The notes: generated by a model not told the origin, from the sequence alone. Positions 472 through 61,349 are shown, numbered from the stretch's first letter. The stretch: 64,000 nucleotides of DNA from Abditibacterium sp. (GCA_965199495.1 CBDASK010000003.1:2336001-2400000), one strand, 5' to 3'. Numbers and translations: made by a program.

Positions 472-1412
472 TTGGCCGCGACTTTCAGCACATAAGGTGC
501 CGCGAAACTCTGCTCGCCGCGCGTGTAATTGAACCAGATTTTCCACTCGCCCGGCACGTCAAACGTCATTTCGGGAGCCGAACCGATGCCATGCACAAGC
601 GTAGAATTGTCGGGCGCAATCGCGACGATTTCGGGGTTTTCGATGGACGACTTGTCAGAAAGCCCCCATTGTAATTTCGTCTTTTGTCCCACTTTGGCTT
701 CTGGCCGCGACATTCCTTGGGTTTTTAAACCGCTAAAAAAGACGACTTGTAAAGTTGCTTGCCCCTTATTGTTGTTGGCCATAGCCATATCGCTTCCTTC
801 GGGCGGCGTTGGAAGCACAGATATATATTTGCTCATATCTGGAATTGGAGCAACTTTTCCAATCGCCGTGAAATTCCAGTAACCGACTTCGCGCGGCAAA
901 TTGTAACTCGCGCGGCGCGTCATCAATTCGCCCATTGACAAATCTTCGTTTTGCGCGACCGCCGGTTGATATTCCAGCCACAGCGTATAATCGCCCGGAC
1001 GCGGCAACGTCCAGTCGGTGTAAAACGAGCCGTATTGTTTATACGTTGGCTTCTGCGGCAGGAAAACCGTGCCGTCTTTGGAGATAATCCAACCGTTCAT
1101 CAAAACCTGCGTGTTATTGATTTTGGTGTCCGGTTGCTGCGGCAACTGCGCGTAGTGTTTCCATTCTTGGCGCAACCCATCGGGTTTGTCTTTGATGTCG
1201 AAAACTTTGATGTCCCAGAACGACTGTTCGCCCGCTTTGACGGGATAAGTGAACGGTTTCGCGCGCACTTTGGTTTTGACCGGCCCAATCAAAGTTTGTG
1301 CTTTGATGAGTTTGAGCGCGGCGGGCGATGGTGGGTTATGCGGCTCGCAACCAGCCACGGCGAGGAGCAATAGCGCGAATCCCATTTTATGAACTGTCTT
1401 AAAACGCCTCAC
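468..1412 (-). CDS. Lipoprotein of unknown function (start uncertain: 1385 ATG, 1412 GTG or 1604 ATG)
   Basis: Lipobox LLLLAVAG-C. The ORF stays open through the palindromic element at 1386-1586. Confidence 0.65.
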   Translation of the reverse strand: MRRFKTVHKMGFALLLLAVAGCEPHNPPSPAALKLIKAQTLIGPVKTKVRAKPFTYPVKAGEQSFWDIKVFDIKDKPDGLRQEWKHYAQLPQQPDTKINNTQVLMNGWIISKDGTVFLPQKPTYKQYGSFYTDWTLPRPGDYTLWLEYQPAVAQNEDLSMGELMTRRASYNLPREVGYWNFTAIGKVAPIPDMSKYISVLPTPPEGSDMAMANNNKGQATLQVVFFSGLKTQGMSRPEAKVGQKTKLQWGLSDKSSIENPEIVAIAPDNSTLVHGIGSAPEMTFDVPGEWKIWFNYTRGEQSFAAPYVLKVAAK

Positions 1413-1586
1413 ACCCCCTCTGTCCTTCGGACATCTCCCCCTCCGAAAGGGGGAGAACGCGCACTGACCGTTCATTGCTCGCGTTTGTTGTGGCGAAGTC
1501 GAGGGTTTGAGCGCCTCTCCCCCTTTCGGAGGGGGAGATGTCCGAAGGACAGAGGGGGTGTGAGGCGTTTTAAGACAGTTCATAAA
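1386..1586. repeat. Palindromic element with perfect 71-bp inverted arms (family A, CTCCCCCT...AGGGGGAG type)
   Basis: 1386-1456 is the exact reverse complement of 1516-1586. Each arm holds internal hairpins. Confidence 0.95.
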
Positions 1587-1606
1587 TGGATAAGACTGCA
1601 TCATTG

Positions 1607-2926
1607 CTAATTCTTCGCTTGCTCGATTTCATCGCGTTCGCGGCGCGCGATGGCGACGTTATGTTTGTGGCCCTCGAAATCGTTGGCGAAAATATGTTTT
1701 TTCAGTTTGGGCGAATACACATAAAACAGCGCCAGAGTTTTGGCCGGGCGCGCCGCCGCCATCAGCGCGTCTTCGCCGGGATTGCAAATCGGCGTCGGCG
1801 GCAAACCGTCGTGGAGATAGGTATTGAACGGCGACTCAAACTTGTAATCTTTGAAATACAAACGCGTTTTATGGTCTTTATCGGCCAGAATGCGCGCGTA
1901 TTGCACGCTGGCGTCAATTTGCAAACGCATGCCCTTTTCCAGTCGGTTCATCATCACGCCCGCAACGATGGGCATCTCGGTTTTAAGATTCGATTCGCGT
2001 TCGACTAAGGAAGCGATGGTAACGATTTCGCCTTTGGTGAGCGGCACGCCTTTGACCGAGGGCAACGGTTCGGGCAGTTTTTTCATCATTTCCGCGAACC
2101 CTTGCTGCATCTGCGCGATCAAGGTTTTGCCGTCGGCTTTGAGCGGCATCCAGTAGGTGCCGGGCGCCAATTGCCCTTCGTAGGGCGAAAAACCCTGATC
2201 GGGATAAATCAGTTTTTCCATTTCGTCGGCGCCCGCGAAACCCTCGCTTTTCAGGCGCGCCGCGATTTGCAAACCGGTGAAACCGGGCGGGAAAACGGCT
2301 TTTTCGTCGGTCGGCCCGGCCTTGAAAATCTGCGCCAGATCGCGCGGCCCGGCGCGGTCGGGCAGGGCATAGCCGCCGGGCGTGACGTTGGTCAAATTGA
2401 CTTCTTTGGCCGCCTGAATAAAAGCGTCGGCATCGCGCACTTTGTCGGATTTTTGGAGTTTTTGCGCCAATGTCGCGGCGCCCCAATCGGTCGGCACGAA
2501 CGCCATTTTGTCGGGCATCGCAATCGGCGCCCAACGCCGTGCTTCTTTGGCGTCGGCCTTCATTTTGAGATAAAGCCCGCCGCCGCCAACGCCCAGAATC
2601 AGAATCAAACCAACCAGGATCGCGGGCCAGCGCGAGCCGCGTGGCTCGACGTAACCCGCGACGATATGTTCGTCGGGCGCGTCTTTGCCGTCTGCGCTCT
2701 CGTCCGGCGTGGCTGTTAGCGGCGCGGGTTGGCTAAAATCGGCGGCGTCCGCGATTTTCTCGTCGAAAACCGTGGGTTCAGAGGTGCGATTGGTGAGCTG
2801 ACTTAAATCGGTGCTGGCCAAATCCCCATCGCTGGCGGGCGGCGAGTCGTCCGTTGTTGGCGCGCTGTTTTCGGGTGGCAACGGTTCGGGCGTGGCGTCG
2901 GGCGACGAATGGGACGGGGTGTTCAC
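1607..2926 (-). CDS. mltG: Endolytic transglycosylase MltG (YceG-like)
   Basis: Single TM anchor, ASLVERE catalytic Glu, NRLEKGMRLQIDASVQY and SPFNTYLHDGLPPTPICNPG. Adjacent to ruvX. Confidence 0.93.
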   Translation of the reverse strand: MNTPSHSSPDATPEPLPPENSAPTTDDSPPASDGDLASTDLSQLTNRTSEPTVFDEKIADAADFSQPAPLTATPDESADGKDAPDEHIVAGYVEPRGSRWPAILVGLILILGVGGGGLYLKMKADAKEARRWAPIAMPDKMAFVPTDWGAATLAQKLQKSDKVRDADAFIQAAKEVNLTNVTPGGYALPDRAGPRDLAQIFKAGPTDEKAVFPPGFTGLQIAARLKSEGFAGADEMEKLIYPDQGFSPYEGQLAPGTYWMPLKADGKTLIAQMQQGFAEMMKKLPEPLPSVKGVPLTKGEIVTIASLVERESNLKTEMPIVAGVMMNRLEKGMRLQIDASVQYARILADKDHKTRLYFKDYKFESPFNTYLHDGLPPTPICNPGEDALMAAARPAKTLALFYVYSPKLKKHIFANDFEGHKHNVAIARRERDEIEQAKN

Positions 2927-2957
2927 GGTGAGTCAAAAATTTGGGAGCGCGGCATTT

Positions 2958-4882: not shown

Positions 4883-5965
4883 TTATTTTTTGGCTTCGAC
4901 TTCCTCTTCTTTGTTCAACAACACACGCATCGCTTCGCACGCGACTTCCAACTGGTCGTCGCTCGGCTCTTCGGTCGTCAATCGTTGCAACCACATTCCG
5001 GGTTTGACCACGATCATCGCCAAGCCCGACAAACGTGGGTTGACGGTTGATTTGATGATTTCATACGAAATGCCCGCGACAACAGGCAACAGCAACAAGC
5101 GCAGTCCGATGCGGGCGACGTGGCTGTCGCCCCACGGCAGAAACGCAAAGCAAATCACCGAAACGAAAACCGTAATTAAAGCGAACCCGGTTCCGCAACG
5201 CGGATGCGGTGTATCGAACGGGCGCGCGCCTGCGGGCGTGAGCGGGCGTCCGTTTTCGACGGCGTAAACGACTTTATGCTCGGCGCCGTGATACTCGAAA
5301 ACCCGCTTGATATTCTTGCGCCGCCCAATGATGAAAACGTAGCCGATGAAAATCGCCAGTTTGACCAAACCTTCGATTCCATTCAGCGCGAGCCGATTTT
5401 TGCCCAATAACGGCTCGAATATCCAATCAGTCAACAAATTTGGCAGCGCCACGAACAGAGCCACGCCGACGCCCAGCGAACCTAAAATCGTCAGCAGGAA
5501 TAACCAAATTGGCAACGCCTTTTTGTCGGGCGCGGTTTGCGTTTCGATTTCCTGCGACGGCGGATGCGTCGTCGTTACCGGCTCGGCAATCGCGACGTTA
5601 CCTCCGTCGCGTTCGGGTTGAACGGTATGCGTCTGTTCTTCCAAAACGACGGCGCCCGTCAACGGCTCGCGCACGGTAAGCGCGGCTTCGCCCGCTTTCT
5701 TTTTGCCTTCGTCTTGCAACGCCAACTCGCTCGACCAATTCAGGTAACCCATGCCCAGCGCGAGCATTTCAAACAACGCGATGATGCCGCGCACAAACGG
5801 AATGTTGAGAAACGGTTTGCGCTTGAGAATCGAATCGAACGGTTCGACACGCGACTGAATCTGGCCGTTAGAGCGCCGCACGGCGGCGCCGACGTGCGTC
5901 GGCCCGCGCATCATCACACCTTCGATGAGCGCTTGCCCGCCCAACTGAAATGGAGTTTTGGCCAT
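4883..5965 (-). CDS. DUF1385 family membrane protein
   Basis: GGQALIEGVMMRG, FEYHGAEHK, HPRCGT and LQRLTTEEP motifs. Typical position between rpmE and prfA. Confidence 0.92.
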   Translation of the reverse strand: MAKTPFQLGGQALIEGVMMRGPTHVGAAVRRSNGQIQSRVEPFDSILKRKPFLNIPFVRGIIALFEMLALGMGYLNWSSELALQDEGKKKAGEAALTVREPLTGAVVLEEQTHTVQPERDGGNVAIAEPVTTTHPPSQEIETQTAPDKKALPIWLFLLTILGSLGVGVALFVALPNLLTDWIFEPLLGKNRLALNGIEGLVKLAIFIGYVFIIGRRKNIKRVFEYHGAEHKVVYAVENGRPLTPAGARPFDTPHPRCGTGFALITVFVSVICFAFLPWGDSHVARIGLRLLLLPVVAGISYEIIKSTVNPRLSGLAMIVVKPGMWLQRLTTEEPSDDQLEVACEAMRVLLNKEEEVEAKK

Positions 5966-7591: not shown

Positions 7592-7616
7592 AAATCCAAT
7601 GTTATCCTTTAGAGCG

Positions 7617-9158
7617 ATGTCAAAGCGCGCTTTACTTTCCGTTTCCAACAAAAATCGTCTCGCCCCGTTCGCGGCGGGACTTGTCGAATTGGGTTTTCAA
7701 ATTCTCTCGACCGGCGGCACCGCCCGCTCTTTGCGCGAGGCCGGTTTGCCCGTCACCGATGTCGCCGAAATCACCGGTTTTCCCGAAATGATGAATGGCC
7801 GCGTCAAGACGCTGCATCCCGCCGTGCATGGCGGCATTCTGGCACGCCGCGATAAACCTGAACATTTGAGCGCCATCGAATCGCAAAATATCGGCGCGAT
7901 TGACTTGGTTTGCGTCAACCTCTATCCGTTCGAGCAGACCGTCGCCAAACCCGATGTGACTGACGAAGAGGCGATTGAAAACATTGACATCGGCGGCCCT
8001 TCGATGGTGCGCAGCGCGGCCAAAAACTTCGCCGCCGTGACGGTCGTGGTTGATCCGACCGATTACGACACCATTTTGGACGAACTCCAAAGCGGCGATA
8101 CCAAAATAGAAACGCGGCGTGCCCTCGCGACCAAAGCGTTCGCGCACACTTCGGCCTACGACGCGGCGATTACAACGTATTTGTCGGGTGAAACTCTGCC
8201 CGATTCGCTGCGCTTGGCGTTCGAGAAAGAGGACGATTTGCGTTACGGCGAAAACCCGCACCAAAAAGCCGCGTTCTATGCCGAACCCAATCCCGCGCAA
8301 GGTTCCCTCGCGGCGGCGCAACAATTGTCGGGCATCGCGTTGTCGTTCGTCAATTTGTTCGATTTGGACGGCGCGTGGAATTTGGTATGCGAATGGGACG
8401 AACCCGCCGCGTGCATCGTCAAGCATGCCAACCCGTGTGGCTGCGCCGTGGCTTCTACGCTCGCCGAGGCGTTTAGCAAAGCGCGCGACGCCGATCCTGT
8501 TTCGCGATTCGGCGGCATTATCGCGTGCAACCAAATCGTTGACGAGCAAACCGCGCAGGAAATCATCGTCAAAGGCTCGCTCTATCACGCGATTATAGCG
8601 CCCGGCTACGAACCGGCGGCGCTGGAATTACTCAAAAATCGCAGTGGCTGGGGCGCCGACTTGCGCATTTTGGATGCGGGCACGACTTTGCCGCGCGAAC
8701 CGGCGCTGGATTGGAAACGCGTTTCGGGCGGTTTGTTGGTGCAGGATTTAGATCGCGGCGAAGTTGCGGATGACGAATTAAAAACCGTGACGCAGACAGC
8801 AGCCACGCCGGAGCAAATGAATGATTTGAAGTTCGCTTGGAAGTGCGTCAAACATCTCAAATCGAACGCGATTGCCGTCGCCAAAAACGGTTCGCTCATT
8901 GGCGCGGGCGCCGGACAGATGAATCGCGTGAATAGCGTTGAACTCGCACTCAAGCAAGCGGGCGACAAAGCGCAGGGCGCGGTCTTGGCTTCGGACGCAT
9001 TTTTCCCGTTCGACGACGGCCCCGCCGCCGCCGCTAAAGCCGGAATTGTCGCGATTATTCAGCCGGGCGGCTCGAACAAAGACGCCGATTCAATCGCGTT
9101 ATGCGACCGCGAAAACGTGGCGATGGTGTTTACCGGAATGCGTCATTTTAAGCATTAA
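7617..9158 (+). CDS. purH: Bifunctional AICAR transformylase / IMP cyclohydrolase
   Basis: RALLSVSNK, STGGT, GRVKTLHP, IDIGGP, LRYGENPHQ, ASDAFFPF and FTGMRHFKH. Confidence 0.98.
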   Translation: MSKRALLSVSNKNRLAPFAAGLVELGFQILSTGGTARSLREAGLPVTDVAEITGFPEMMNGRVKTLHPAVHGGILARRDKPEHLSAIESQNIGAIDLVCVNLYPFEQTVAKPDVTDEEAIENIDIGGPSMVRSAAKNFAAVTVVVDPTDYDTILDELQSGDTKIETRRALATKAFAHTSAYDAAITTYLSGETLPDSLRLAFEKEDDLRYGENPHQKAAFYAEPNPAQGSLAAAQQLSGIALSFVNLFDLDGAWNLVCEWDEPAACIVKHANPCGCAVASTLAEAFSKARDADPVSRFGGIIACNQIVDEQTAQEIIVKGSLYHAIIAPGYEPAALELLKNRSGWGADLRILDAGTTLPREPALDWKRVSGGLLVQDLDRGEVADDELKTVTQTAATPEQMNDLKFAWKCVKHLKSNAIAVAKNGSLIGAGAGQMNRVNSVELALKQAGDKAQGAVLASDAFFPFDDGPAAAAKAGIVAIIQPGGSNKDADSIALCDRENVAMVFTGMRHFKH

Positions 9159-9277: not shown

Positions 9278-9817
9278 TTACGCCCGAATCTCACGCGCCA
9301 AACCCGCCACACATTCGCGCAATAACGCGCTGATTTCCTCATCGGCGAGCAACGCAGCCACGTCCACCCGATTCGATCCCAATGGCACTTCCACCGACGC
9401 CGTTTCGCTGACGCGTGCCATCAACGTTTTCAAAATTTCGAGCAACGACGCGTTGGCAAACGAACCACGATTGGCGACGCTGATTATCGCGACCGGTTTG
9501 TCCCACAACTCGCCGCCGCTCACCAGCCAGTCGAGCAAATTCTTGAAACTGCCCGGCAAACCATGAACATATTCGGGCGTGCAAATGATTAAACCTTCGG
9601 CGGCAACCACGCGGGCGCGCAAATCGGCGACGCTCGTGGGCGCGTTTTCGCCATCGTCGTCGGGATTGAAATGCGGCAACGCGCCCATATTATCATAAAT
9701 TTCAATCGAAATATCGTCGGGCGTCAGCGCCGTGGCGGCTTGCAAGAGCGCCGAATTGGAACTGGCCACGCGCAGACTGCCCGAAATCGCCAGCAACTTA
9801 AAGGAAGAATCGTTCAT
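9278..9817 (-). CDS. NADPH-dependent FMN reductase (ChrR/SsuE-like)
   Basis: ISGSLRVASSN and TPEYVHGLPGSFKNLLDW. Confidence 0.92.
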   Translation of the reverse strand: MNDSSFKLLAISGSLRVASSNSALLQAATALTPDDISIEIYDNMGALPHFNPDDDGENAPTSVADLRARVVAAEGLIICTPEYVHGLPGSFKNLLDWLVSGGELWDKPVAIISVANRGSFANASLLEILKTLMARVSETASVEVPLGSNRVDVAALLADEEISALLRECVAGLAREIRA

Positions 9818-11554: not shown

Positions 11555-12307
11555 ATGCCCCCTTCTTCGCTTCTCGCTCCTGCCGCACCGCGCCAAATTT
11601 TGGTGGTCGAGGATGACCGTGATTTGAGCCAACTGGTGCAGATGCACCTGCGCGACGCCGGTTACAGTTGCCAGATCAGCCACGACGGCGCCGCTGGTTT
11701 GACGCAAATGGAAACGCGCGATTACGATTTAATCGTGCTGGATTTGACTCTGCCGCGCACCGATGGCCTCGAAGTTTGCCGTCAGGTGCGCGCGCGCGAT
11801 CATTACACGCCGATTATCATGGTGACTTCGCGCGGCGACGAATTGGATCGCGTGCTGGGTCTGGAGTTGGGCGCCGACGATTATCTGGCCAAACCGTTTT
11901 CGATGCGCGAACTTTTGGCGCGCGTCAAAGCGGTTTTTCGGCGCGGCGAAGCGATGAATAAATCAGAAAACGCGCGCGATTCCGATTGTCCGGTGGCGAA
12001 AAACAGCGTTATTGAGAGCGGCCAGATGCGCATCGAACTCGACAAACGCGAAGTTATCATTGCCGGGCAAAGCGCGCAACTCACCGCCAAAGAATTCGAT
12101 TTGCTGCACTATTTCGCCTGTCATCCGGGCCGCGTTTACACGCGCTTGCAACTGCTCGATGCCGTTTGGGGTTTGGGTTATGAAGGCTACGAACATACGG
12201 TAAACAGTCACATCAATCGTCTGCGCGCCAAAATCGAACGCGACCCGACGCGTCCGCAATATTTGTTGACGGTTTGGGGCGTGGGATATAAATTCGCGGA
12301 GTTGTAG
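11555..12307 (+). CDS. OmpR-family response regulator
   Basis: REC domain (VVEDD, VLDL, KPF) plus winged helix (LTAKEFDLL, HINRLRAKIE, TVWGVGYKF). Confidence 0.95.
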   Translation: MPPSSLLAPAAPRQILVVEDDRDLSQLVQMHLRDAGYSCQISHDGAAGLTQMETRDYDLIVLDLTLPRTDGLEVCRQVRARDHYTPIIMVTSRGDELDRVLGLELGADDYLAKPFSMRELLARVKAVFRRGEAMNKSENARDSDCPVAKNSVIESGQMRIELDKREVIIAGQSAQLTAKEFDLLHYFACHPGRVYTRLQLLDAVWGLGYEGYEHTVNSHINRLRAKIERDPTRPQYLLTVWGVGYKFAEL

Positions 12308-27903: not shown

Positions 27904-27912
27904 TTGACTAAA

Positions 27913-35757: not shown

Positions 35758-35955
35758 GCTATTTTCTCCTCTTGGCGTTGCAGGAAAATTTATCGGCGAA
35801 ATTTGATTTCGCCGACGGTGCAACGGGCAAGGCTTACGAGAAAAAGGATAACAAATTTTGTTTTCACTTACAACAGAAAAAACAAAATTTATTTTCCTTT
35901 TCTCGAATTTATTTTTTGCGAGTTCCATTCATCCCGGCGACGTGGCTGCTAATGG

Positions 35956-51404: not shown

Positions 51405-52661
51405 ATGAGCGAAATACGTAACGTCATTATCATCGGCAGCGGGCCTGCCGGTTACACCGCCGCGCTTTATACGGCGCGCGCCAACCTGAAACCTCTGCTC
51501 ATCGCGGGCAGCGCCGACAAGAAAACTTCGCGCATCAAGGGCGGGCAACTGATGGCGACATCGGACATCGAGAACTTTCCCGGCGCGATTGTGACCGGCG
51601 TTGATTTGGATACTTATTCTTATCTCGAAGGCGACGAGAAAGCCGCCGCGCTGCAAGATGTGAAAGGTTTGAGCGGCCCGCATTTGATGACGCGCATGGA
51701 AATGCAGGCATTGCATTTCGGCGCCGAAATGATCGAAGAGTTCGTGACCGATGTGGACATCTGCTCCAAGCCGGGCGAACTTTATACGGTCACGACCGAA
51801 ACCGGCAAAGTTTTCCAGTCGCGCGCTTTGATTATCGCGTCGGGTGCTGCCGCCAAGACGATGGGCATCGAGGCCGAAGACAAATTTTTTGGTCAGGGCG
51901 GCGGCGTTTCGACGTGCGCGACCTGCGACGGGCATTCGTATCGCGGCAAAACCGTGGCGGTTGTCGGCGGCGGCGATTCGGCGATGGAAGAAGCGTCGTA
52001 TCTGGCCAATCTGGGTATTGACGTGCATCTGATTCACCGCCGCGACGAGTTCCGCTCGTCGCGCATTATGCTCGAACGCGTGCGCAAAAACCCGAAAATT
52101 ACGATTCACGAGTTTCGTCAAATCGTGGATTTGTTGGGCAAACCGCATCCTCTGGCAGAGACCTCGAAGTTTTTCGCCGACAAAGAAGTGCTGCGCGCCG
52201 CCGTGTTGGAAGACCCGCGCGACGGTTCGCGCGAAGAACTCGAATTGGACGGCGTTTTCGTGGCGATTGGACACACGCCCAACACGCAGGTTTTCGCCGA
52301 CCAACTGAAAATGGACGAAGCGAAGTATCTCGAACGCGACAAGCATATGCGCGCGATTCCTTCGATAAACGCGTGCAACCACAAAATGCACGGCATGGAT
52401 TATGTGCCCGGCATTTTCGTGGCGGGTGACGTTTCCGATCACATGTATCGTCAGGCGATAACGGCGGCGGGCATGGGCTGCATGGCGGCGATTGAAGCCG
52501 AGCGTTACCTCGCCGAGAAACTGGCCGAATGGGAAGGTCTGGACGGCAACGATGTGGATATGTCGCTCGAAAGCATCGGCGTCTCGCATTGGAGCAACAA
52601 CCGCGACGTGGCTGGCGAAGAGCCAGTCGTCGAGAAAGTGAAAGAAGCGGCGCAGATGTAA
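51405..52661 (+). CDS. trxB: Thioredoxin reductase with insertions and C-terminal extension
   Basis: IIGSGPAGYTAA, CATCD, GGGDSAMEE, HRRDEFR and YRQAITAAG. Confidence 0.93.
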   Translation: MSEIRNVIIIGSGPAGYTAALYTARANLKPLLIAGSADKKTSRIKGGQLMATSDIENFPGAIVTGVDLDTYSYLEGDEKAAALQDVKGLSGPHLMTRMEMQALHFGAEMIEEFVTDVDICSKPGELYTVTTETGKVFQSRALIIASGAAAKTMGIEAEDKFFGQGGGVSTCATCDGHSYRGKTVAVVGGGDSAMEEASYLANLGIDVHLIHRRDEFRSSRIMLERVRKNPKITIHEFRQIVDLLGKPHPLAETSKFFADKEVLRAAVLEDPRDGSREELELDGVFVAIGHTPNTQVFADQLKMDEAKYLERDKHMRAIPSINACNHKMHGMDYVPGIFVAGDVSDHMYRQAITAAGMGCMAAIEAERYLAEKLAEWEGLDGNDVDMSLESIGVSHWSNNRDVAGEEPVVEKVKEAAQM

Positions 52662-52784: not shown

Positions 52785-53924
52785 ATGAGCACTTCTGGCC
52801 CTTACAATCTGAAGAACCCTTTTCCCGCGCGTCTGGCGCGCACCGTCGTTTTGACCGGCGCAGGTTCGAGCAAAGATACCCGTCATTTTGAAATTGACCT
52901 CACCGGTTCGGGCATCGAATATCTGCCCGGCGATTCCCTCGCGGTGCAACCGCAAAACGATCCCAAAGTCGTGGACGACATCATTGATGCGCTCAATCTC
53001 AGCCCCGACGAAATGGTCGGCGAAGGCGAGGGCGCCAAAACTCTGCGCGAAGCTCTCATTTCCGATTACGCCGTCACCACGCCGTCGCCGCAGTTGCTCA
53101 AAGCCATCGCCGCGATTGCGCCGCATTCGTCGTTCGCGCACTTGCTCGATCCCGACAAAAAAGTCGAATTGGCGCAATATCTGTGGGGCCGCGAAATCAT
53201 TGATTTGTTGGTTGAACACGCCGAAATCAATTTCACCGCCGCCGAGTTCGTCAAACTGCTGCGCAAGTTGCAGGTGCGCTTGTATTCGATTTCGTCGAGT
53301 CTGGCGGCGTGTCCCAACTCCGTCCATTTGACCGTTGCGACCGTGCAATACGAGAGCTTTGGCCGCATGCGTCAGGGCGTGGCTTCGAGTTGGATGGCGC
53401 ATCGCATTGACGAAAGCACGCCGATCCCCTGCTACATCACGCCCAACAAACGCTTCCGTCTGCCCGAACCCGATAACGACGTGCCAATTATCATGGTCGG
53501 TCCCGGAACCGGAGTCGCGCCGTTTCGCGCGTTCGTGCAGGAGCGCCGCGCGACGAACGCCAAAGGCAAAGCGTGGCTGTTCTTTGGCGAGCAACATCAA
53601 AGCAGCGAATTCTTCTACGAAGACGAGTGGAATGAAGCGATGAAAGACGGTTCGCTCACAAAATTAACCACAGCGTTTTCGCGCGACCAAACGCACAAAA
53701 TTTACGTGCAACACCGTATGATCGAAGAGGGCGCGCAATTGTGGGAATGGCTGAACGAAGGCGGCATTTTCTACGTCTGCGGCGACAAAACGCGCATGGC
53801 CGCCGACGTTGACGCGGCGCTGCACGCCGTCATTCACCAGCACGGCGGCAAAACCGAGGAAGAGGCGGCGGAATACGTCGAACAGATGAAGAAAGAACAT
53901 CGTTACCATCGCGACGTTTATTAA
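52785..53924 (+). CDS. CysJ-like FAD/NADPH reductase module lacking the flavodoxin domain
   Basis: RLYSISSS, GVASSW, GPGTGVAPFR, AFSRDQ, FYVCGD and RYHRDVY. Confidence 0.88.
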   Translation: MSTSGPYNLKNPFPARLARTVVLTGAGSSKDTRHFEIDLTGSGIEYLPGDSLAVQPQNDPKVVDDIIDALNLSPDEMVGEGEGAKTLREALISDYAVTTPSPQLLKAIAAIAPHSSFAHLLDPDKKVELAQYLWGREIIDLLVEHAEINFTAAEFVKLLRKLQVRLYSISSSLAACPNSVHLTVATVQYESFGRMRQGVASSWMAHRIDESTPIPCYITPNKRFRLPEPDNDVPIIMVGPGTGVAPFRAFVQERRATNAKGKAWLFFGEQHQSSEFFYEDEWNEAMKDGSLTKLTTAFSRDQTHKIYVQHRMIEEGAQLWEWLNEGGIFYVCGDKTRMAADVDAALHAVIHQHGGKTEEEAAEYVEQMKKEHRYHRDVY

Positions 53925-54667: not shown

Positions 54668-55987
54668 TTAGAAGCCCGCCAAGCCCTGCGGGCTGGTGTA
54701 AGGAATGGCGTCTTCATCGATTTTCTTCAGGGCGCCATCGGCTCCCAGTTCGTAGGAGATCAGTTTGGAAGCGTTGGCGTAGATTTGGTAGAAATACTTG
54801 CCGTCGGGACTGAGCAAGTTATCGCTGGGGCCGCTGGAAACTATACCATCGAGAGCTTTGAAACTGCCGTCGCCGGGCACGGCGGGCGCAGCCGGGTCTT
54901 TGGCGATTTGCAGCGCGCCGTTGACGATTTTGTAGCTCGAAACCGAGCTATAACCAAACGCCGTCGCCAAAACTTGCTTGTTGTCGGGCGTAATAGCGAG
55001 CCAGCATTGTTCGGAAGGCATGCCTTTGCTGGTGTCAATGGCGACAATCGGCGAGTGCGTGACGGTGCCCCCAGCACTAATTTTGCCCATCGCCAGACCA
55101 TTTCCGCCCGCATAGGTGGTGACGAAAGTATCGTTGCTGCCATATAAAAACTGCGCTGAAAAGCCCGCCGCGCCGCCCGCATCCATGATCTGAGCCGCAC
55201 CCAAATCGCCATTATCTTTGACCGGAAAAACCACCAGTCCATCTTTGTCTTTGGCGTTCGATACAGCCACGTCGGCAGCCACGGGATCGCCACCGTGATT
55301 GATTTTGGGTTCGTGATCGAACAAAAGCAGGCCCATCAAAAACTTGCCATCGGGCGACAGCACAATTTGCGTCATCACGCGGTCAGTTTTGGACGGCGTG
55401 TTGACCGAAGCACTGCCCTGACGCAACGTCAGCTTGCCGTCTTTGACCGAATACATATGAATATGATCGGGGCCAAACGCGTGACCGACATAGAGCGTTT
55501 TGGTGCGCGGCGAGTAGGCGAGCGTTTTGGCCGTGCCGCTTTTGGTGCGTTCCTTCGGCTTGCCGGTCGCTTGAACATCAATCAAAGTCGGTGTGCCGCC
55601 GTCGCCGATTGAAAAACTCGACACGGTGTTATTGCCGCCGTTGGTGGTGAAGAGATATTTGTGATCGGGCGTAAGGATCACCGAGCCGACACCTTCAAAC
55701 GGGTTGGGTTCGCTGGGTTTGTCGTAGATGGGCTTGTAGGTACCGGAACCTTTGCCGCCGGTTGAGATGCGCTCCAATTCGGAGAGGCCGCCGTTGCGCA
55801 GGCGAGCGTAATGGACGATCTCGTTGTCGAGGCCATTGGTCTGCATATAAACGTTACCGCCGCCACTGCCGCCGCCGCCAGTAAGTCCATTCCCACCGCC
55901 ACAACCCGTCGTTAGCGCAACCGCACCAACGCACGTCAAGATTCCCAGAGGAACGATGTTGGCCAACTTCATCTTGTGTTGCTTCAT
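54668..55987 (-). CDS. Lactonase-like beta-propeller lipoprotein
   Basis: Lipobox LTTG-C, Gly linker, VYMQTN, and repeated blades (LTPDHKYLFTTN, LSPDGKF, ITPDNKQ, LSPDGKYFY). Confidence 0.85.
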   Translation of the reverse strand: MKQHKMKLANIVPLGILTCVGAVALTTGCGGGNGLTGGGGSGGGNVYMQTNGLDNEIVHYARLRNGGLSELERISTGGKGSGTYKPIYDKPSEPNPFEGVGSVILTPDHKYLFTTNGGNNTVSSFSIGDGGTPTLIDVQATGKPKERTKSGTAKTLAYSPRTKTLYVGHAFGPDHIHMYSVKDGKLTLRQGSASVNTPSKTDRVMTQIVLSPDGKFLMGLLLFDHEPKINHGGDPVAADVAVSNAKDKDGLVVFPVKDNGDLGAAQIMDAGGAAGFSAQFLYGSNDTFVTTYAGGNGLAMGKISAGGTVTHSPIVAIDTSKGMPSEQCWLAITPDNKQVLATAFGYSSVSSYKIVNGALQIAKDPAAPAVPGDGSFKALDGIVSSGPSDNLLSPDGKYFYQIYANASKLISYELGADGALKKIDEDAIPYTSPQGLAGF

Positions 55988-58115: not shown

Positions 58116-59255
58116 ATGTCCGCGCCCTCCTTTCCCTTCGCCGCCGCGCCACCATTGCCTTCTCCTATTCCAATCGAACGCGCCGAAATCGTGAGTTTCG
58201 ATGGCCATTTTTTCGCCCGCGTTTACAGCGGCGAATTTTGTGGTGTTGTCGCGCTGAATGATTGGACTCCCCCATTAATTTCGCTGTGGCAAAACTTAAT
58301 TTTGCCGTTTTGGATGGGCCGCGACGCGCGCGACGTGGCTGCTGCTGTCGAAGAGATTGGCCGAACGAATCTCAATTACAAACTCGCGGGCGCGCCGTTT
58401 TGGATGGCGGTCGCGGGCGTCGAACTGGCGATCTGGGATTTGCTGGGGCACGCGCACGGAAAAAGCGTCGCCGCTTTGCTGTGCGAAAAACCGCGCCGCA
58501 AAATCCCGGTTTATCTGTCGAGTTTGCGCCGCGATAACCAAGCGCAAGCCGAAATCGAACGCTTGGACGAGGCCATCGCGCAAACGGGCGCCAAAGCGGT
58601 GAAAATCAAAATTGGCGGGCGCGGTTTTTGGGACGCACAGACCGAGGCGCGTGACCGTGAACTGTTGAAGTTGGCGCGCGAAAAATGGGGCGAAAAGTTC
58701 ACAATTTACGCCGATGCCAATGGTTCGTTTGAGGCCGAAAAAGCCAGAGAAGTCGGCGAAATGTTGCACGAATACCAAATCGCGTGGTTCGAGGAGCCGT
58801 GCGATTGGGAAGATTTCGAGGCGACGCGCGCGGTCGCGGCCCATGTGCAGTTGCCGGTCTCTGGTGGTGCGCAGGACAGCTCGTGGCCCAAATGGAAATG
58901 GCTCTTGGAAAATTGCGCGCTCGACATCGCGCAACCCGATCTGAGCGCCAATGGCGGACTGTTGCGCTCGCTACGCGTGGCGCAGTTCGCGGCGAATTTG
59001 GGCGTTTCGACGGCGCCGCACGCGTCCGGTTGGGCAATGTGCGCTTTGCCCGCGCTCCATTTCGCGGCGGCGCTTGAAAAATCGGCGCCGTTTCTGGAAT
59101 GGGACGCCGACTTGATCAAAGCGCCGTCGTGGTTTGCAAGCGCGCTTGAAATCCAAAAAGGCGCGGTGACTTTGCCCAAAGGCGCCGGATGGGGCGCCGT
59201 TTATGACGAAGAAATTTGGAAAAACGCGCAAACTCTGGCGCGCTCAAGCGTCTAA
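58116..59255 (+). CDS. Mandelate racemase / muconate lactonizing enzyme family protein
   Basis: ELAIWDLLG, KIKIG, DANG, WFEEP and QPD. Confidence 0.88.
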   Translation: MSAPSFPFAAAPPLPSPIPIERAEIVSFDGHFFARVYSGEFCGVVALNDWTPPLISLWQNLILPFWMGRDARDVAAAVEEIGRTNLNYKLAGAPFWMAVAGVELAIWDLLGHAHGKSVAALLCEKPRRKIPVYLSSLRRDNQAQAEIERLDEAIAQTGAKAVKIKIGGRGFWDAQTEARDRELLKLAREKWGEKFTIYADANGSFEAEKAREVGEMLHEYQIAWFEEPCDWEDFEATRAVAAHVQLPVSGGAQDSSWPKWKWLLENCALDIAQPDLSANGGLLRSLRVAQFAANLGVSTAPHASGWAMCALPALHFAAALEKSAPFLEWDADLIKAPSWFASALEIQKGAVTLPKGAGWGAVYDEEIWKNAQTLARSSV

Positions 59256-59261: not shown

Positions 59262-59843
59262 ATGAAATTTCAATTTCTGGCGCCAGCACTTGTTTTGAGT
59301 TGCGGCATTTTGAGTTATAGTTTGGCGCGCGCCGCCGACACAGCCACGGCGGCGCAACAAGCGCAATTAGAGCCGATTAAGACGGGCGAACCGCACGCGA
59401 CGAAGTTCGCGCCGTTGGCGTATTTCAGCGCAAACTGCGCGCGTTGCCACGGCGAAAACGGTTCATTTTATGGCGAAGATTTCGCCAAAGGTCTGGACGA
59501 TGCGGCGCTTCACAACGTCGTCAAAGAGATGGCCGAAGGCCCGGCGCAAGCCCCGCTTTCGCCCGCCGATTTGGACGCCGTGACCAGTTGGCACCGTTCG
59601 ATGCGCGATAAAAAGCCGTTCGTCGTCATCGTCAAATCCGAAAAAACCGACGCCGGTTGGCAACTGGAAGGCGAGATTTCGCCGGACGCGACGCTGCAAA
59701 TTAATGGCAAAGATGTCGAAGTCAAAGGCTCTAATTGGACGACTCGTCTCGCGCCCGACGCCGCGAAAACCGTGAAGTTGCGCGCGCAAAAGGGTGACGC
59801 GCTGACTGAATTAGACGCGAGCGTTGGCGCATTCGCGCCGTGA
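59262..59843 (+). CDS. Secreted monoheme cytochrome c with C-terminal beta domain
   Basis: Signal peptide, CARCH and a distal Met. Confidence 0.8.
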   Translation: MKFQFLAPALVLSCGILSYSLARAADTATAAQQAQLEPIKTGEPHATKFAPLAYFSANCARCHGENGSFYGEDFAKGLDDAALHNVVKEMAEGPAQAPLSPADLDAVTSWHRSMRDKKPFVVIVKSEKTDAGWQLEGEISPDATLQINGKDVEVKGSNWTTRLAPDAAKTVKLRAQKGDALTELDASVGAFAP

Positions 59844-59863
59844 GCGAAAGGCGTCGAAACGAT

Positions 59864-60625
59864 TCAGCGTTCCAACAATGCGCGCAGTTGCGCGGCGACG
59901 TGGCTGTCTTGCGCGGCGCAGAGCGGTTGGCCCGTGGCGTCGGTCACGAAGAATGTATCAGCGACGGCATTCTCGAAGGTGTTGATTTGCGCGTGCGCGA
60001 TGTTCAAATTCAGTTGCGCGAGCGCCTGAGAAACCGTGAATAAAACGCGGCTTTCGTTGGGCGCCGAAAGTTTTATCAGCGTGTAAAGTCCCGCCGTTGT
60101 CACCGAAATTTCATCCACTTGCAAGGTCGAAACCGGCGGTTTGGCGGGCGGATTTTGTTCTTTGATGACCGCGCGCAACGCCTTTTTGAGAGCCGCACAG
60201 TTTTTGTTCGCCAAGGGACGCGTGCGCCGAAAACTGTTCTCGCTGATGATGAACGTGTCCAGCACAATTGGCGTTGCGGGAAACTGCGGATCGGAAAGCG
60301 TGTGAATCCATGCGGTATGCACGTTGATACCCTGCGCGGCCAAAACGCCCGCGATGCGGGCGAGCAAACCGGGCCGACTGGGTTCGTAACCGCACAACGT
60401 CAGTTCGGTGAATTGCGCGCCGGGCGGACAGAGCAGCTCGATTTGCAATGGTTTCGCGGGCAGATCGCGCAGCAGTTGCAGATGGCGGCGCATGCGAGAA
60501 AGCGGCGTGTTGACGAAATAAAAGTCGGGCAACAGCCGCCGCAAAAAGGCGCTCACCTGCTCGTCCGGCGCATCGGCGTCGGGCATGGCCGCTTGTTGCA
60601 CCCTAATCGCATCAAAACTCGTCAT
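59864..60625 (-). CDS. Stand-alone tandem ACT protein resembling the GlnD C-terminus
   Basis: RPGLLARIAGVL...INVHTAWIHT...LDTF and LNIAHAQINTF...DTFFVTDATGQPL. Confidence 0.8.
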   Translation of the reverse strand: MTSFDAIRVQQAAMPDADAPDEQVSAFLRRLLPDFYFVNTPLSRMRRHLQLLRDLPAKPLQIELLCPPGAQFTELTLCGYEPSRPGLLARIAGVLAAQGINVHTAWIHTLSDPQFPATPIVLDTFIISENSFRRTRPLANKNCAALKKALRAVIKEQNPPAKPPVSTLQVDEISVTTAGLYTLIKLSAPNESRVLFTVSQALAQLNLNIAHAQINTFENAVADTFFVTDATGQPLCAAQDSHVAAQLRALLER

Positions 60626-60737
60626 AATAGAAGAAAACGCGCCAGACAAAAGTGTATTTTGTGGTTTTAGTTTAAAGATTCGCGCGTTTGCGGGTGTTAC
60701 GTTCAGGTTTCGCCCGCGCAATTTTTGCATAAAACTC

Positions 60738-61349
60738 ATGGGGATTTCCACTTTCGATATTTTGGGATGGTTGCCCGCTATTTTGCTCGGATTGGGTTTG
60801 GCGGCATCGAGCGGCTTGCGCGCGTTTTTGCCGTTGTTGCTGCTTTCGATGGCGGCGCACTGGAACATTTTTAACATCGAACTGACCGGCCCGTTCGCGT
60901 GGCTGGGTTCGCCGCTCGCGTTGGGCGCCCTCGCGATTGCGACGATTATCGAAGTCGCGGGCGATAAAATTCCGGTCGTTGACCACGCGCTCGATGCCAT
61001 TGGCACTTTTATTCGTCCGCTCGCGGGCACTTTGGCGGCGGCGGCGGTCATCAACAACCACGATCCAGCCACGGCGGCAATATTGGGCTTGGTTTTGGGC
61101 GCGCCGCTCGCGTTGGGCGTTCACGGCATCAAAGCGGGCACGCGCGGCGTTTCGACGGTTTCAACGATGGGCGTCGCCAACCCGGTCGTCTCGGTTTTCG
61201 AGGACATCGCGGCGTTTTCTATCGGATTTTTGTCGTTACTCGCGCCGCTTTTGGTGCCACTGATACTGGTCTGTGTGGGCATCATCGGCTGGAAAATGTT
61301 GATGTTGGTCAAGAGCATCAAGGCGCGCCGCGATCAAGGCATTTCATAA
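60738..61349 (+). CDS. DUF4126 family membrane protein
   Basis: GLAASSGLRAFLPL, EVAGDKIPVVDHALD and NPVVSVFED. Confidence 0.88.
   Translation: MGISTFDILGWLPAILLGLGLAASSGLRAFLPLLLLSMAAHWNIFNIELTGPFAWLGSPLALGALAIATIIEVAGDKIPVVDHALDAIGTFIRPLAGTLAAAAVINNHDPATAAILGLVLGAPLALGVHGIKAGTRGVSTVSTMGVANPVVSVFEDIAAFSIGFLSLLAPLLVPLILVCVGIIGWKMLMLVKSIKARRDQGIS

Follow-up and report, generated by a model that had tools for sequence, protein, structure and literature searches.

The window, a 64-kb stretch of DNA that was analysed as a whole, carries 49 exact copies of the 8-mer CAGCCACG, 26 of them on the plus strand and 23 reading CGTGGCTG. By ORF-based gene calls, 44 of the 49 fall within CDSs, which lie on either strand and are read in various frames across the word. 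Each line below is one copy of CAGCCACG, with its coordinates, strand, sequence context and location.

1352..1359, +, context caacCAGCCACGgcga, CDS 468-1604(-)
2708..2715, -, context ctaaCAGCCACGccgg, CDS 1607-2926(-), YceG family
5119..5126, -, context gcgaCAGCCACGtcgc, CDS 4883-6124(-)
8800..8807, +, context acagCAGCCACGccgg, CDS 7599-9158(+), purH-type
9355..9362, +, context aacgCAGCCACGtcca, CDS 9278-9817(-)
11677..11684, +, context agatCAGCCACGacgg, CDS 11555-12307(+)
13316..13323, +, context acagCAGCCACGccgc, CDS 12535-14124(+), histidine kinase
14265..14272, +, context ctgaCAGCCACGgcgc, CDS 14207-15394(+)
16798..16805, +, context ataaCAGCCACGttga, CDS 16137-16931(+)
17686..17693, +, context gcctCAGCCACGccgt, CDS 16971-18326(+)
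18201..18208, +, left arm of inverted pair (CAGCCACG cgc CGTGGCTG) with 18212-18219, CDS 16971-18326(+)
18212..18219, -, right arm of inverted pair with 18201..18208
19155..19162, +, context acagCAGCCACGtcgc, CDS 18448-20754(-), molybdopterin dehydrogenase
20913..20920, +, context atacCAGCCACGgcgc, CDS 20893-21990(-)
21928..21935, -, context caagCAGCCACGgcga, CDS 20893-21990(-)
22580..22587, -, context acagCAGCCACGccgc, CDS 22032-23051(-)
22808..22815, +, context tgtgCAGCCACGtcgc, CDS 22032-23051(-)
23427..23434, +, context gcagCAGCCACGccag, CDS 23283-24185(-)
25235..25242, +, context agtgCAGCCACGgcgc, CDS 24222-25313(-)
26940..26947, -, context acatCAGCCACGgcgc, CDS 26326-26970(+)
27670..27677, +, context aagtCAGCCACGtcgg, CDS 26972-27796(-)
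28161..28168, -, context tcggCAGCCACGtcgc, CDS 27904-28554(+)
29555..29562, -, mfd (28551-32135, -); conserved in G004 and G011 but not in motif-poor G006 and G003
30827..30834, -, mfd; in G000 only, the same place being AAGCCACG in G011 and CAATCACG in G004
33005..33012, -, context caacCAGCCACGgcgc, CDS 32273-33028(+)
34246..34253, -, context attgCAGCCACGgcac, CDS 33439-34515(-), ROK family
35941..35948, -, context ttagCAGCCACGtcgc, intergenic
37451..37458, +, context gcatCAGCCACGgcgt, CDS 36850-37884(+)
38679..38686, -, context agagCAGCCACGtcgt, CDS 38035-38880(+)
39690..39697, +, context atagCAGCCACGccga, CDS 39473-42976(+), BlaR1-M56 protein
40233..40240, -, context gtagCAGCCACGtcgc, CDS 39473-42976(+)
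41754..41761, +, context gatgCAGCCACGccgc, CDS 39473-42976(+)
42456..42463, +, context aaacCAGCCACGccga, CDS 39473-42976(+)
44011..44018, -, context tgggCAGCCACGgcgg, called CDS 43882-44664(-)
46025..46032, +, context cataCAGCCACGgcgt, CDS 44670-46259(-), FGGY kinase
47916..47923, -, context aaccCAGCCACGccgc, CDS 46433-48529(+)
48872..48879, -, context acgcCAGCCACGcgcg, outside gene calls
49046..49053, -, context cgaaCAGCCACGattg, outside gene calls
49232..49239, +, context atagCAGCCACGgcgg, outside gene calls
50590..50597, +, context taagCAGCCACGccga, CDS 49544-51274(-), ankyrin repeats
52607..52614, -, context tcgcCAGCCACGtcgc, called CDS 51405-52661(+)
53572..53579, -, context agaaCAGCCACGcttt, called CDS 52785-53924(+)
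55264..55271, +, first of direct pair 12 bp apart, CDS 54668-55987(-)
55276..55283, +, second of direct pair with 55264..55271
58334..58341, -, context gcagCAGCCACGtcgc, CDS 58116-59255(+)
59341..59348, +, context gacaCAGCCACGgcgg, CDS 59262-59843(+)
59899..59906, -, context aagaCAGCCACGtcgc, CDS 59864-61072(-)
60898..60905, -, context aaccCAGCCACGcgaa, CDS 59864-61072(-)
61066..61073, +, context gatcCAGCCACGgcgg, edge of CDS 59864-61072

The original prediction had counted 48 copies (25 and 23), all of its listed coordinates being among ours, and had placed almost all of them in CDSs, in both orientations and different frames, as we also find. The longer form CAGCCACGNC is present at 42 of the 49 copies (41 of 48 in the earlier count) and an NCG extension at 38, while AGCCACG lacking the leading C occurs at 23 further sites (earlier, about 22). 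Roughly three copies had been expected by chance; 100 dinucleotide-preserving shuffles of the window gave a mean of 2.08 (sd 1.52, maximum 7), and none attained 49.

The enrichment extends beyond the window. The 4.72-Mb chromosome of G000, the genome from which the window comes, holds 3083 copies (1558 on the plus and 1525 on the minus strand; 0.65 per kb, about one per 1,500 bases), with copies on both strands of every 100-kb bin. The excess also persists under 20 synonymous-codon shuffles within each gene, which preserve protein and codon usage: CDSs contain 2821 copies against about 265 expected (sd about 15, highest shuffle total 281), a 10.5-fold excess that ranks CAGCCACG first among all 65,536 8-mers (z = 156), and the 11-mer CAGCCACGNCG, with 2179-2180 copies, reaches 34 times expectation. 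Genes contain 91.5% of the copies, at about 0.70 per kb versus 0.34-0.39 per kb in intergenic DNA, and the two commonest frames encode the Ala-rich peptides A-A-T-A and A-V-A-A.

The word is written against the codon habits of its host. Ala-Ala-Thr is spelled GCA-GCC-ACG in 561 of 1421 tripeptides (39.5%, against 0.9% expected), GCA being the least used Ala codon (6.3%), and GTG-GCT accounts for 28% of Val-Ala pairs (expected, 3.7%). The full signal, a-G-CAGCCACG-b-C-G, spans about 11-13 bp, and its flanks (A at -2, G at -1, not-A at +9, C at +10 and G at +11) recur in all six frame classes and at 257 intergenic copies; the word is a frame-independent, DNA-level signal. Variants with a single interior mismatch mostly occur less often than expected (O/E 0.16-1.28, in most cases 0.5-0.8), and at positions 2-7 every substitution type is depleted, transitions and others alike.

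Strand skew relative to the replichores, proposed earlier as a check, revealed no polarity: with origin and terminus placed solely by a cumulative GC skew that is weak, 1483 of 3083 copies (48.1%) fall on the inferred leading strand and 51.9% on the other, which argues against Chi or KOPS. Copies are spaced more evenly than random, with 635 gaps of 500 bp or less (859 ± 21 for random placement) and a median of 1198 (random, 1062), and 86 of the 90 close pairs (<41 bp) are inverted.

Depletion in prophage and acquired DNA had likewise been suggested as a check, and the word is indeed scarce there. The small contigs C1 and C2 hold two and six copies (0.08-0.09 per kb), and three mobile or defence segments, 150 kb in all, hold 0.14-0.20 per kb, both near background; these word-poor segments encode serine recombinases, a relaxase, a coupling protein, restriction-modification and DISARM-like genes, and prophage capsid and portal proteins. 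By deciles of codon usage, O/E is 5.9 in the most atypical and 8.9-13.4 in the remaining nine.

The word is specific to a young clade of three species, with species dialects of the flanks. In a sample of 401 genomes from the phylum, three alone stand out for CAGCCACGNCG (G000, 2180 copies; G011, 1838; G004, 739), and only these three of 13 congeners stand out for the 8-mer, the other ten being at background. At orthologous positions G000 sites are kept above background in both motif-bearing relatives, 66% being intact in G011 (36% for background 8-mers) and 33% in G004 (26%). Overall, conservation is about twice that of background. G000 copies differ from orthologous sequence by point substitutions, often synonymous, and at 12 sites G004 has CCGCCACG where G000 has CAGCCACG. 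The G004 dialect is ACAC-CAGCCACG-TCC: at 40 shared orthologous sites, a 3' TCC occurs 13 times in G004 versus 2 in G000, and NCG 13 versus 24. In G004, moreover, 145 of 280 sampled copies lie in intergenic hairpin units of about 60 bp whose inner part is most often 25 nt long, with an internal CTAC/GTAG; the 18-nt arms are conserved and the inner sequences distinct in 52 of 53. The hairpins occur in all intergenic classes (convergent, 3.5 per kb; divergent, 2.6 per kb), and since divergent regions have them too, they are not simply terminators.

Competence genes, whose presence was another proposed check, are encoded: a pilus operon (PilB, PilT, PilC and prepilin peptidase) with three adjoining pilin-like genes, a ComEA-like protein (SLBB+HHH_3), a full-length ComEC and DprA. 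However, 20 of 21 genomes carry comEC and five of five carry dprA and HHH_3, motif-poor congeners included, so these genes do not explain the restriction of the word to three species. We found no clade-specific receptor; the three pilin-like genes beside the pilus operon are syntenic across most of the genus, matching 13, 11 and 13 of 13 genomes, respectively.

We tentatively read CAGCCACG as a candidate self tag resembling a DNA uptake sequence, and give this nearly an even chance. A surface DNA receptor of a type IV pilus/ComEA/ComEC route would bind the word, and fragments bearing it would be taken up preferentially and recombined via DprA/RecA, so that alleles gaining a perfect copy would spread and those losing one would be overwritten. 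Such molecular drive, whether or not conspecific DNA is also selected for, could write the word into permissive places of the core chromosome and keep it out of newly arrived DNA, and a change of receptor would let the flanks drift into dialects. On this reading an uptake receptor would be the reader of the word, and these bacteria would be transformable. The original prediction had offered a self-DNA uptake signal or a binding site of a recombination or nucleoid protein; it is partly supported, by survival of the codon shuffle, genome-wide and unpolarised distribution, conservation and depletion in mobile DNA, while the competence genes are equally present in motif-poor congeners.

The likeness to the DUS of Neisseriaceae and USS of Pasteurellaceae extends to core-genome bias, conservation, spacing, inverted pairs, dialects and frame bias. 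According to the available parts of the respective papers, DUS/USS are biased to the core genome, absent from recently acquired genes and highly conserved, with spacing linked to recombination tracts and with inverted pairs (PMC2397512); they form dialects (PMC3630211) and show frame bias and terminator location (10.1101/2025.10.24.684340). Two differences count against the self-tag reading. Singly mismatched forms are over-represented in H. influenzae and N. gonorrhoeae (PMC1939737, in the part available), whereas interior variants of CAGCCACG are under-represented; and, unlike in Neisseria, the word in G000 is denser in genes, with few copies in hairpins. A literature search found no description of CAGCCACG in print, and none of the matches listed dealt with natural transformation in this group of bacteria.

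It is unlikely, though worth weighing, that the word is instead driven inside the cell in the manner of HIP1, a methyltransferase and/or very-short-patch-type repair converting near-matches, or the methylated word serving repair or recombination. Conversion would be expected to deplete interior one-mismatch forms, and C5 methyltransferase genes were found in each of the three motif-rich genomes, the two motif-poor ones tested having none. However, we found no C5 methyltransferase ortholog common to the three motif-rich species: the G000 enzyme is non-orthologous to that of G004 and G011 (29-33% identical to them, while they share 80% with each other). Vsr is above the cut-off of 27 bits in G004 only, G000 scoring 24.5 bits and G011 (a genome 87% complete) giving no match, and deamination repair predicts loss of transitions only, not of all substitution types. 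Methyltransferase sites, moreover, are usually shorter than a contiguous asymmetric 11-13 bp. In the available text of PMC4390886, PMC5861425 and PMC13756078, HIP1 is, like CAGCCACG, hyper-abundant in coding DNA, conserved and quasi-periodic, and it is tied to orphan methyltransferases. HIP1 also enhances natural transformation, as far as the available part of 10.1101/2024.09.10.611283 goes, so this explanation may merge with the self-tag reading.

About equally improbable is a binding site, unrelated to uptake, for a chromosome-organising or other protein (nucleoid-associated, condensin loader or defence self marker). A frame-independent, even, conserved and strand-symmetric word would suit any sequence-specific reader that profits from regular coverage of the chromosome. 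Yet none of the nucleoid or segregation proteins known to us has some 3000 specific sites of 11-13 bp; parS, matS, NBS and SBS sites number tens. Per-site selection over thousands of copies would be implausibly strong, whereas uptake plus recombination supplies drive for free, and a housekeeping organiser would not be expected in only three of 13 congeners with flanks changing between sister species.

Less probable still is a Chi-like signal, in which a helicase-nuclease would read the word or its complement CGTGGCTG during double-strand-break repair and shield self DNA from degradation. The word is short and asymmetric, with a G/T-rich complement, clade-specific, core-enriched and foreign-depleted, and a 1433-aa ORF in G000 has a C-terminal PD-(D/E)XK nuclease domain; for RecC, G000 gave no match. 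Known Chi sites show a strong orientation bias along the direction of replication (about 75% in E. coli), unlike the unbiased orientation seen here relative to the direction inferred from weak GC skew, and fall below both 0.65 per kb and a 34-fold 11-mer excess. Nor are flanks that differ by species, or hairpin arms that are conserved, traits of Chi. In the available part of 10.1101/2024.09.10.611283, HIP1 is itself proposed to act partly Chi-like, which favours this alternative.

That a RAYT-type (Y1) transposase spread the copies, as REP/REPIN-like units of which some may now be remnants, is highly improbable. The G004 hairpin units, with their modal inner length and presence in all intergenic classes, fit such a product, as does the hairpin downstream of mfd, which G004 has as an insertion when compared with G000 and G011; each of the five genomes tested has Y1_Tnp genes. 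These genomes, however, include motif-poor ones, and copies of the word do not clearly border the genes; G000 has a single occurrence of the G004 hairpin 18-mer, and distinct interiors between conserved arms are the opposite of a recently copied master. For the copies of G000 and G011 a mobile-element origin is refuted. Those of G000 are overwhelmingly genic, conserve only 11-13 bases and differ from orthologs by point changes, as at the CCGCCACG sites. An artefact of amino-acid, codon or dicodon usage or base composition has next to no chance of being correct and is refuted, for although Ala-rich peptides are common in a 56% GC genome, the excess survives the codon shuffle, rare codons spell the word, its flanks are the same in all frames and intergenic DNA, and ten congeners are at background.

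If the self-tag reading is true, CAGCCACG would resemble the tags that let Neisseria and Haemophilus tell DNA of their own kind from other DNA during uptake.

The asymmetric 8-mer CAGCCACG (hereafter the word) contains the 7-nt sequence AGCCACG and has longer forms that include AGCAGCCACGGCG. The window holds 49 exact copies, 26 on the plus strand and 23 on the minus strand, against 2.08 (sd 1.52, largest value 7) in 100 dinucleotide-preserving shuffles of the same DNA. The original prediction, a hand count of 48, was essentially right, and so were its finer figures: 42 of the 49 copies continue with NC (41 had been counted) and 38 with NCG, 23 further sites keep only the AGCCACG core (about 22 had been estimated), and 44 copies fall in coding sequences, on both gene strands. 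For this we used our own ORF-based gene calls, trained on codon usage (3619 genes, 85% coding), which are approximate and not curated annotation. The genome (G000) comprises a chromosome contig (C3) of 4,719,681 bp with 55.7% GC, on which the window spans positions 2336001-2400000, and small contigs of 24,667 and 64,557 bp. The chromosome carries 3083 copies, 1558 on the plus and 1525 on the minus strand (0.65 per kb), and the enrichment reaches well past the window: both strands are occupied in every 100-kb bin of the chromosome, at 0.33–0.84 copies per kb. The 11-mer CAGCCACGNCG occurs 2179 times.

Our main null model shuffles synonymous codons within each gene (20 runs), keeping both the proteins and the per-gene codon usage. 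This protein-preserving control, which the original prediction had called for, leaves the enrichment standing: 106 ± 11 sense and 159 ± 10 antisense copies are expected, with a largest total of 281, and 1251 and 1570 are observed, that is 2821 copies or a 10.5-fold excess. Among all 65,536 8-mers the word ranks first under this null (z = 156), and the next-ranked words overlap it. Longer forms are more extreme, with the 11-mer at 34 times and the 13-mer AGCAGCCACGNCG at 115 times the codon-shuffle expectation. Order-3 and order-4 Markov models give 5.7–7.0-fold (7-mers, and the 8-mer in a 212-kb sample); their training data are the DNA under test, and some of the signal is taken up by the models themselves. 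A maximal-order Markov ranking is uninformative, since overlapping sub-words absorb the signal. In proteins the word is spelled with rare codons: Ala-Ala-Thr is encoded as GCA-GCC-ACG in 561 of 1421 tripeptides (39.5%, 0.9% expected), GCA making up only 6.3% of Ala codons, and Val-Ala preceding A, G, V, D or E is encoded as GTG-GCT in 28% of cases (3.7% expected). The six frame classes are unevenly filled, with 1201, 837, 326, 302, 88 and 67 copies, and a frame bias of a similar sort has been reported for the DNA uptake sequences (DUS) of Neisseriaceae and the uptake signal sequences (USS) of Pasteurellaceae (10.1101/2025.10.24.684340). Apart from the word, the coding sequences deviate most from the codon-shuffle null in CpG-rich words that span codon boundaries (e.g. 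CGCTCGAA at 4.7-fold and GCGCGCGC at 2.2-fold), and the commonest raw 8-mers consist nearly all of C and G despite 56% GC; together these indicate a marked CpG-favouring codon-pair bias.

Aligned contexts of the chromosomal copies extend the signal to 11–13 conserved nucleotides. On the 5′ side A is found at −2 in 49% and G at −1 in 58% of copies; on the 3′ side A is avoided at +9 (4%), followed by C at +10 (82%) and G at +11 (75%). Identical flanks are found separately in each of the six frame/orientation classes and in 257 intergenic copies, 91.5% of all copies being intragenic. The same flanks in every frame and between genes argue that the signal is read on DNA and not via protein. Single changes at positions 2–7 of the word have observed/expected ratios of 0.16–1.28 under the codon-shuffle null (15 of 18 variants below 1), and changes at positions 1 and 8 have ratios of 1.08–3.29, a pattern that points to AGCCAC as the strict core, with C and G strongly favoured on its two sides. 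The scarcity of interior near-matches suggests their conversion into perfect copies. For Haemophilus influenzae as well as Neisseria gonorrhoeae singly mismatched forms are reported to be over-represented, as judged by a null model that differs from ours (PMC1939737).

Spacing of the copies is more even than chance would give: the median gap is 1198 bp (1062 bp random), gaps of 500 bp or less number 635 (859 ± 21 random), and the coefficient of variation of the gaps is 0.93 overall and 0.77 within 40–7000 bp. Very close pairs are in excess, with 63 against 40 at 20 bp or less; 86 of the 90 pairs within 40 bp are inverted, many of them perfect palindromes such as ATGCAGCCACGGCGCCGTGGCTGCAT. Close pairs hold less than 6% of the copies in this genome.

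Acquired DNA, which the original prediction had wanted checked for depletion, is poor in the word: this is seen in the small contigs, in genes of atypical codon usage and in three mobile, defence or prophage segments of the chromosome. The small contigs carry 2 and 6 copies (0.08–0.09 per kb), with 2 genic copies against 0.6 expected and 5 against 2.6. The most atypical decile of codon usage has an observed/expected ratio of 5.9, against 8.9–13.4 in the other nine. The three segments, 150 kb together, hold 0.14–0.20 copies per kb; their contents are taken from Pfam scans of 104 called genes.

G000:C3:415000-450000, motif-poor segment: three large serine recombinases, TrwB-like coupling protein, Replic_Relax relaxase; further, GAP1/double-GTPase genes, a fused E2-ThiF(E1)-JAB protein and an Mrr-type nuclease
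G000:C3, 1135-1225 kb, motif-poor segment: type I R-M, TIR protein, transposase, two serine recombinases, DISARM-like helicase/methylase/SNF2 cluster
G000:C3:1177810-1191175, the DISARM-like cluster within the motif-poor 1135-1225 kb island
G000:C3:4230000-4260000, motif-poor prophage-like segment: capsid, portal, ParB-like protein, VRR-NUC nuclease

By its predicted gene content the 415–450 kb segment is an integrated mobilisable element or a defence island. The DISARM-like cluster encodes a 1981-aa DEAD helicase with MZB (DUF1998-type) and PLD-like MIT_C domains, a 1433-aa Eco57I/MmeI-type N6 methyltransferase and a 1034-aa SNF2 helicase. QueC–QueF, GTP cyclohydrolase I and radical-SAM genes also lie in the 4230–4260 kb segment and suggest 7-deazaguanine modification of the phage DNA; an IS605 OrfB/Cas12f-like TnpB is found at the edge of this segment. 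Depletion in acquired DNA makes the word a mark of the resident core chromosome, and DUS likewise mark the core genome (PMC2397512). Two palindromic MITE-like repeats within the window (34420–34590 and 35010–35150, intergenic after a ROK gene) both lack the word. With blastn they have 147 and 161 matches on the chromosome and none on the small contigs; among relatives, the first is abundant in G011 and the second in G004, two congeners described below.

We counted the 8-mer in 41 genomes, of which 13 belong to the genus, 12 more to the family and 16 are others. It is enriched only in the present genome (3091 copies) and in the congeners G004 (3503) and G011 (2676); the ten other congeners hold 133–348 copies, like the reversed-word control. 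The picture is the same for CAGCCACGNCG among 401 genomes of the phylum: only G000 (2180), G011 (1838) and G004 (739) stand out, and no other genome exceeds about 170, values that match their controls. For mfd, identity to G000 is 88.5% in G011 and 87.8% in G004, and about 70–71% in the motif-poor congeners G006 and G003. An identity of about 88% among the three, against about 70% to the nearest motif-free congeners, argues for a young clade and a young system. A codon or composition artefact was considered for the enrichment and is ruled out by the codon shuffle, by the use of rare codons to spell the word, by flanks that do not depend on frame and by the background-level counts of the other congeners.

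Conservation at orthologous positions, another of the checks proposed at the outset, was measured in best-hit alignments and exceeds background in both motif-rich relatives. In G011, 66% of the G000 sites are intact against 36% of background 8-mers (203 kb aligned), and in G004 33% against 26% (233 kb); in motif-poor G006, 4 of 46 sites (9%) are intact against 14% of background. Species-specific sites are often one substitution apart, frequently a synonymous one, and at 12 places where G000 has the word G004 has CCGCCACG. The excess conservation together with these one-substitution differences indicates a word that is conserved above background and still gained by point substitution. In 212 kb of G006 (4% of that genome) we found no alternative hyper-abundant asymmetric word, none reaching 0.3 per kb; homopolymer runs and one low-copy repeat rank highest there. 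Runs of C or G of at least 10 nt are very frequent in this sample, with 90 windows of CCCCCCCCCC, and may reflect either true homopolymer tracts or an artefact of assembly or of contig ends.

The flanks of the word differ between lineages. Those of G011 equal those of G000, and the form with flanks in G004 is ACACCAGCCACGTCC: among 280 sampled G004 copies, the 5′ flank has A at −4 (74%), C at −3 (69%), A at −2 (87%) and C at −1 (70%), and the 3′ flank reads T (80%), C (79%), C (75%). In 400 kb of G004 there are 165 copies of CAGCCACGTCC, against 64 in the whole G000 chromosome, and CAGCCACG followed by G, C or T and then CG occurs 43 times in the G004 sample against 2112 times in the G000 chromosome. 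The difference is seen at the same sites: at 40 orthologous positions kept in both, TCC follows the word 13 times in G004 and 2 times in G000, and NCG 13 and 24 times, respectively. At 104 sites common to G011 and G000 the two are alike, with NCG at 78 and 81. The flanks have therefore been remodelled in place, lineage by lineage, around a common core. The dialects of DUS follow Neisseriaceae phylogeny around a shared core (PMC3630211).

In G004 the word has also settled on hairpins. Of the 280 sampled copies 130 lie singly in genes and show the G004 flanks less strongly, 145 sit in units with the nearly invariant 18-mer GACACCAGCCACGTCCTA, which occurs once in G000, and 5 lie at gene edges. 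The 145 unit copies comprise 98 that are intergenic and paired, 32 paired within our coding-sequence calls and 15 intergenic singles. There are 53 convergent pairs in the 400-kb sample, with a modal inner length of 25 nt and 52 of the 53 inner sequences distinct: the arms are maintained while the interior drifts. Hairpins are found in all intergenic classes (3.5 per kb between convergent, 1.9 between tandem and 2.6 between divergent genes) and are thus not simply terminators. G000 and G011 lack the sequence of the hairpin that G004 carries downstream of mfd.

The competence genes sought as a check on the original prediction (comEC, comEA and pilins) are present in this genome. By Pfam, ComEC is full-length (DUF4131, Competence and Lactamase_B domains) and a ComEA-type protein combines SLBB and HHH_3; the DprA gene adjoins topA. 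A pilus operon encodes a PilB-like ATPase with MshEN, a PilT-like ATPase, PilC, a prepilin peptidase and three pilin-like proteins with an N-terminal methylation motif, whose genes lie at G000:C3:867620-871395. ComEC, ComEA, DprA and the pilus genes are equally found in the motif-poor congeners, which makes them necessary and not discriminating. The genome also has seven T2SSE-ATPase loci, 6–8 secretin matches and 28 matches to the H-X9-DG prepilin-type family, which has zero matches in 14 control genomes. This family is typical of the Planctomycetes–Verrucomicrobia–Lentisphaerae (PVC) group, and the organism would be called PVC-type on the sole basis of these 28 matches and that distribution.

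A clade-specific receptor was sought by presence/absence among the three pilin-like genes, which gave no such signal: of the 13 genus genomes 13, 11 and 13 have a match, the 618-aa query giving none in the congeners G001 and G007. The identities of the three proteins are 78, 57 and 82% to G011, 63, 47 and 64% to G004, and 32–58% to the best orthologous matches of other congeners. These fast-evolving proteins are candidate readers of the word and do not count as evidence. The 618-aa prepilin-motif protein (G000:C3:868592-870445) evolves very fast, being 57% identical to its G011 and 47% to its G004 counterpart, with mfd DNA at 88%. It may be a minor pilin or belong to the pilus tip, and is among the candidate readers of the word.

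How does the word compare with known systems? DUS are 10–12 nt long, come in eight or more dialects and are read by the minor pilin ComP. USS have a 9-nt core plus flanks that are A/T tracts, and we know of no receptor for them. With DUS the word shares a short asymmetric form at about 1 per kb on both strands, in the core and missing from acquired DNA, as well as conservation above background, non-random spacing and close inverted pairs or hairpins, here especially in G004 (PMC2397512); it further shares species-level dialects around a shared core (PMC3630211). Word and bacterial group differ from those of DUS, no ComP-like receptor was identified here, copies in G000 and G011 are mostly intragenic with few in hairpins, and interior one-mismatch forms are depleted, not enriched. 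With USS it shares mostly coding copies, a strong reading-frame bias and a core with weaker flanking positions; its flanks differ in being G+C-rich (sCG). Accumulation by point substitution at permissive sites, reported for USS (PMC1939737), is a further likeness. The testable genomic properties of DUS and USS are all found here except two: interior one-mismatch forms are depleted, and in G000 and G011 the word lies mainly in genes.

Taken together, the genomic pattern makes a DNA-uptake-sequence-like tag a reading to which we give slightly under an even chance. Such a tag would work by biased uptake followed by homologous recombination. The remaining probability is shared by three alternatives: a HIP1-like internal drive, a non-polar Chi-like signal and a genome-wide DNA-binding protein.

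Under the HIP1-like alternative, methylation and repair would drive the word from within. HIP1 (GCGATCGC), the cyanobacterial word, is likewise a hyper-abundant 8-mer in genes beyond codon usage, conserved and quasi-periodic; it is a palindrome with cognate methyltransferases found across most of a phylum, whereas CAGCCACG differs from its reverse complement and is confined to three species of one genus. All three motif-rich genomes have C5 methyltransferases and the two motif-poor ones examined have none, but the enzymes share no common ortholog: the G000 enzyme is 29–33% identical to any in the other genomes, G004 and G011 sharing theirs at 80%. Vsr scores above the cut-off in G004 only. The shared G004/G011 enzyme (G004:C8:768489-769388 and G011:C237:3371-4270, 80%) has a conserved 344-aa neighbour (79%), and the two are possibly an R-M pair; G000 lacks this enzyme and has an unrelated 398-aa C5 methyltransferase (C3:1917555-1918637). 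HIP1 itself has a recently reported link with natural transformation, and a role as uptake-recognition sequence has been proposed for it (PMC13756078; 10.1101/2024.09.10.611283), which raises the prior for hyper-abundant words as transformation tags.

Chi and KOPS/SRS motifs are polarised with replication. They resemble the word in being short, asymmetric, over-represented and marks of the resident chromosome; the word differs in being unpolarised, far more enriched, and provided with flank dialects and hairpin carriers. With the origin (~1.85 Mb) and terminus (~4.0 Mb) placed by weak cumulative GC skew only, 48.1% of copies lie on the leading strand and 51.9% on the other, so the Chi/KOPS type of co-orientation with replication, the strand skew that the original prediction had wanted examined, is absent; 52.0% of genes are co-oriented. 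A Chi-like signal would have to be a non-polar one. A search of G000 for a RecBCD/AddAB reader gave no RecC; a PD-(D/E)XK domain occurs in one ORF of 1433 aa. The tested gene content supports neither the methylation/VSP nor the Chi reading. The third alternative is that the word is read by some DNA-binding protein acting genome-wide.

REP/REPIN elements are intergenic palindromic units of 20–40 nt that flank or co-occur with a gene for a RAYT transposase; the G000 and G011 copies are 11–13-bp intragenic words arisen by substitution. Only the G004 hairpins look REPIN-like: at ~60 bp and intergenic they match REPIN doublets in size and placement, though their interiors are unconserved. Y1_Tnp genes occur in all five genomes tested, and a RAYT link was rejected: at eight G004 and six G000 Y1 loci, copies of the word do not regularly flank the gene in excess of the usual density.

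To our knowledge, sequence-specific DNA uptake has been demonstrated in two proteobacterial families only. Our literature search found no description of CAGCCACG; among the matches listed, its occurrences in text belong to unrelated eukaryote and virus work. For uptake sequences or natural transformation in Verrucomicrobia and Planctomycetes, nothing on topic stood among the matches listed, as judged by title for the uptake terms. How uptake tags arise, and whether they persist through selfish drive or through selection, has long been asked (PMC2397512, PMC1939737).

By analogy, the word may be a genomic self tag of the DUS/USS/HIP1 type, found in a new lineage at an early stage, its flanks split into dialects and some copies carried on hairpins. 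The fuller reading, for which the comparative pattern makes a somewhat weaker case than for the tag itself, is that of a young working uptake-specificity system in a PVC-type bacterium, absent from ten congeners and with two sister dialects, one of them on proliferating intergenic hairpins, or else a wholly new genome-wide reader of DNA words. The genus offers a young tag in three species, motif-free outgroups, a dialect split at orthologous sites and hairpin colonisation in one lineage, and a comparison of the three tagged with the ten untagged congener genomes could reveal the reader; if that is no uptake receptor, it would be a new type of sequence reader acting across the genome. If the uptake reading is true, this would be the first uptake-specificity system outside Neisseriaceae and Pasteurellaceae, the emerging case of HIP1 apart, and the birth of an uptake sequence, along with the co-evolution of tag and receptor, would be open to study within one genus.
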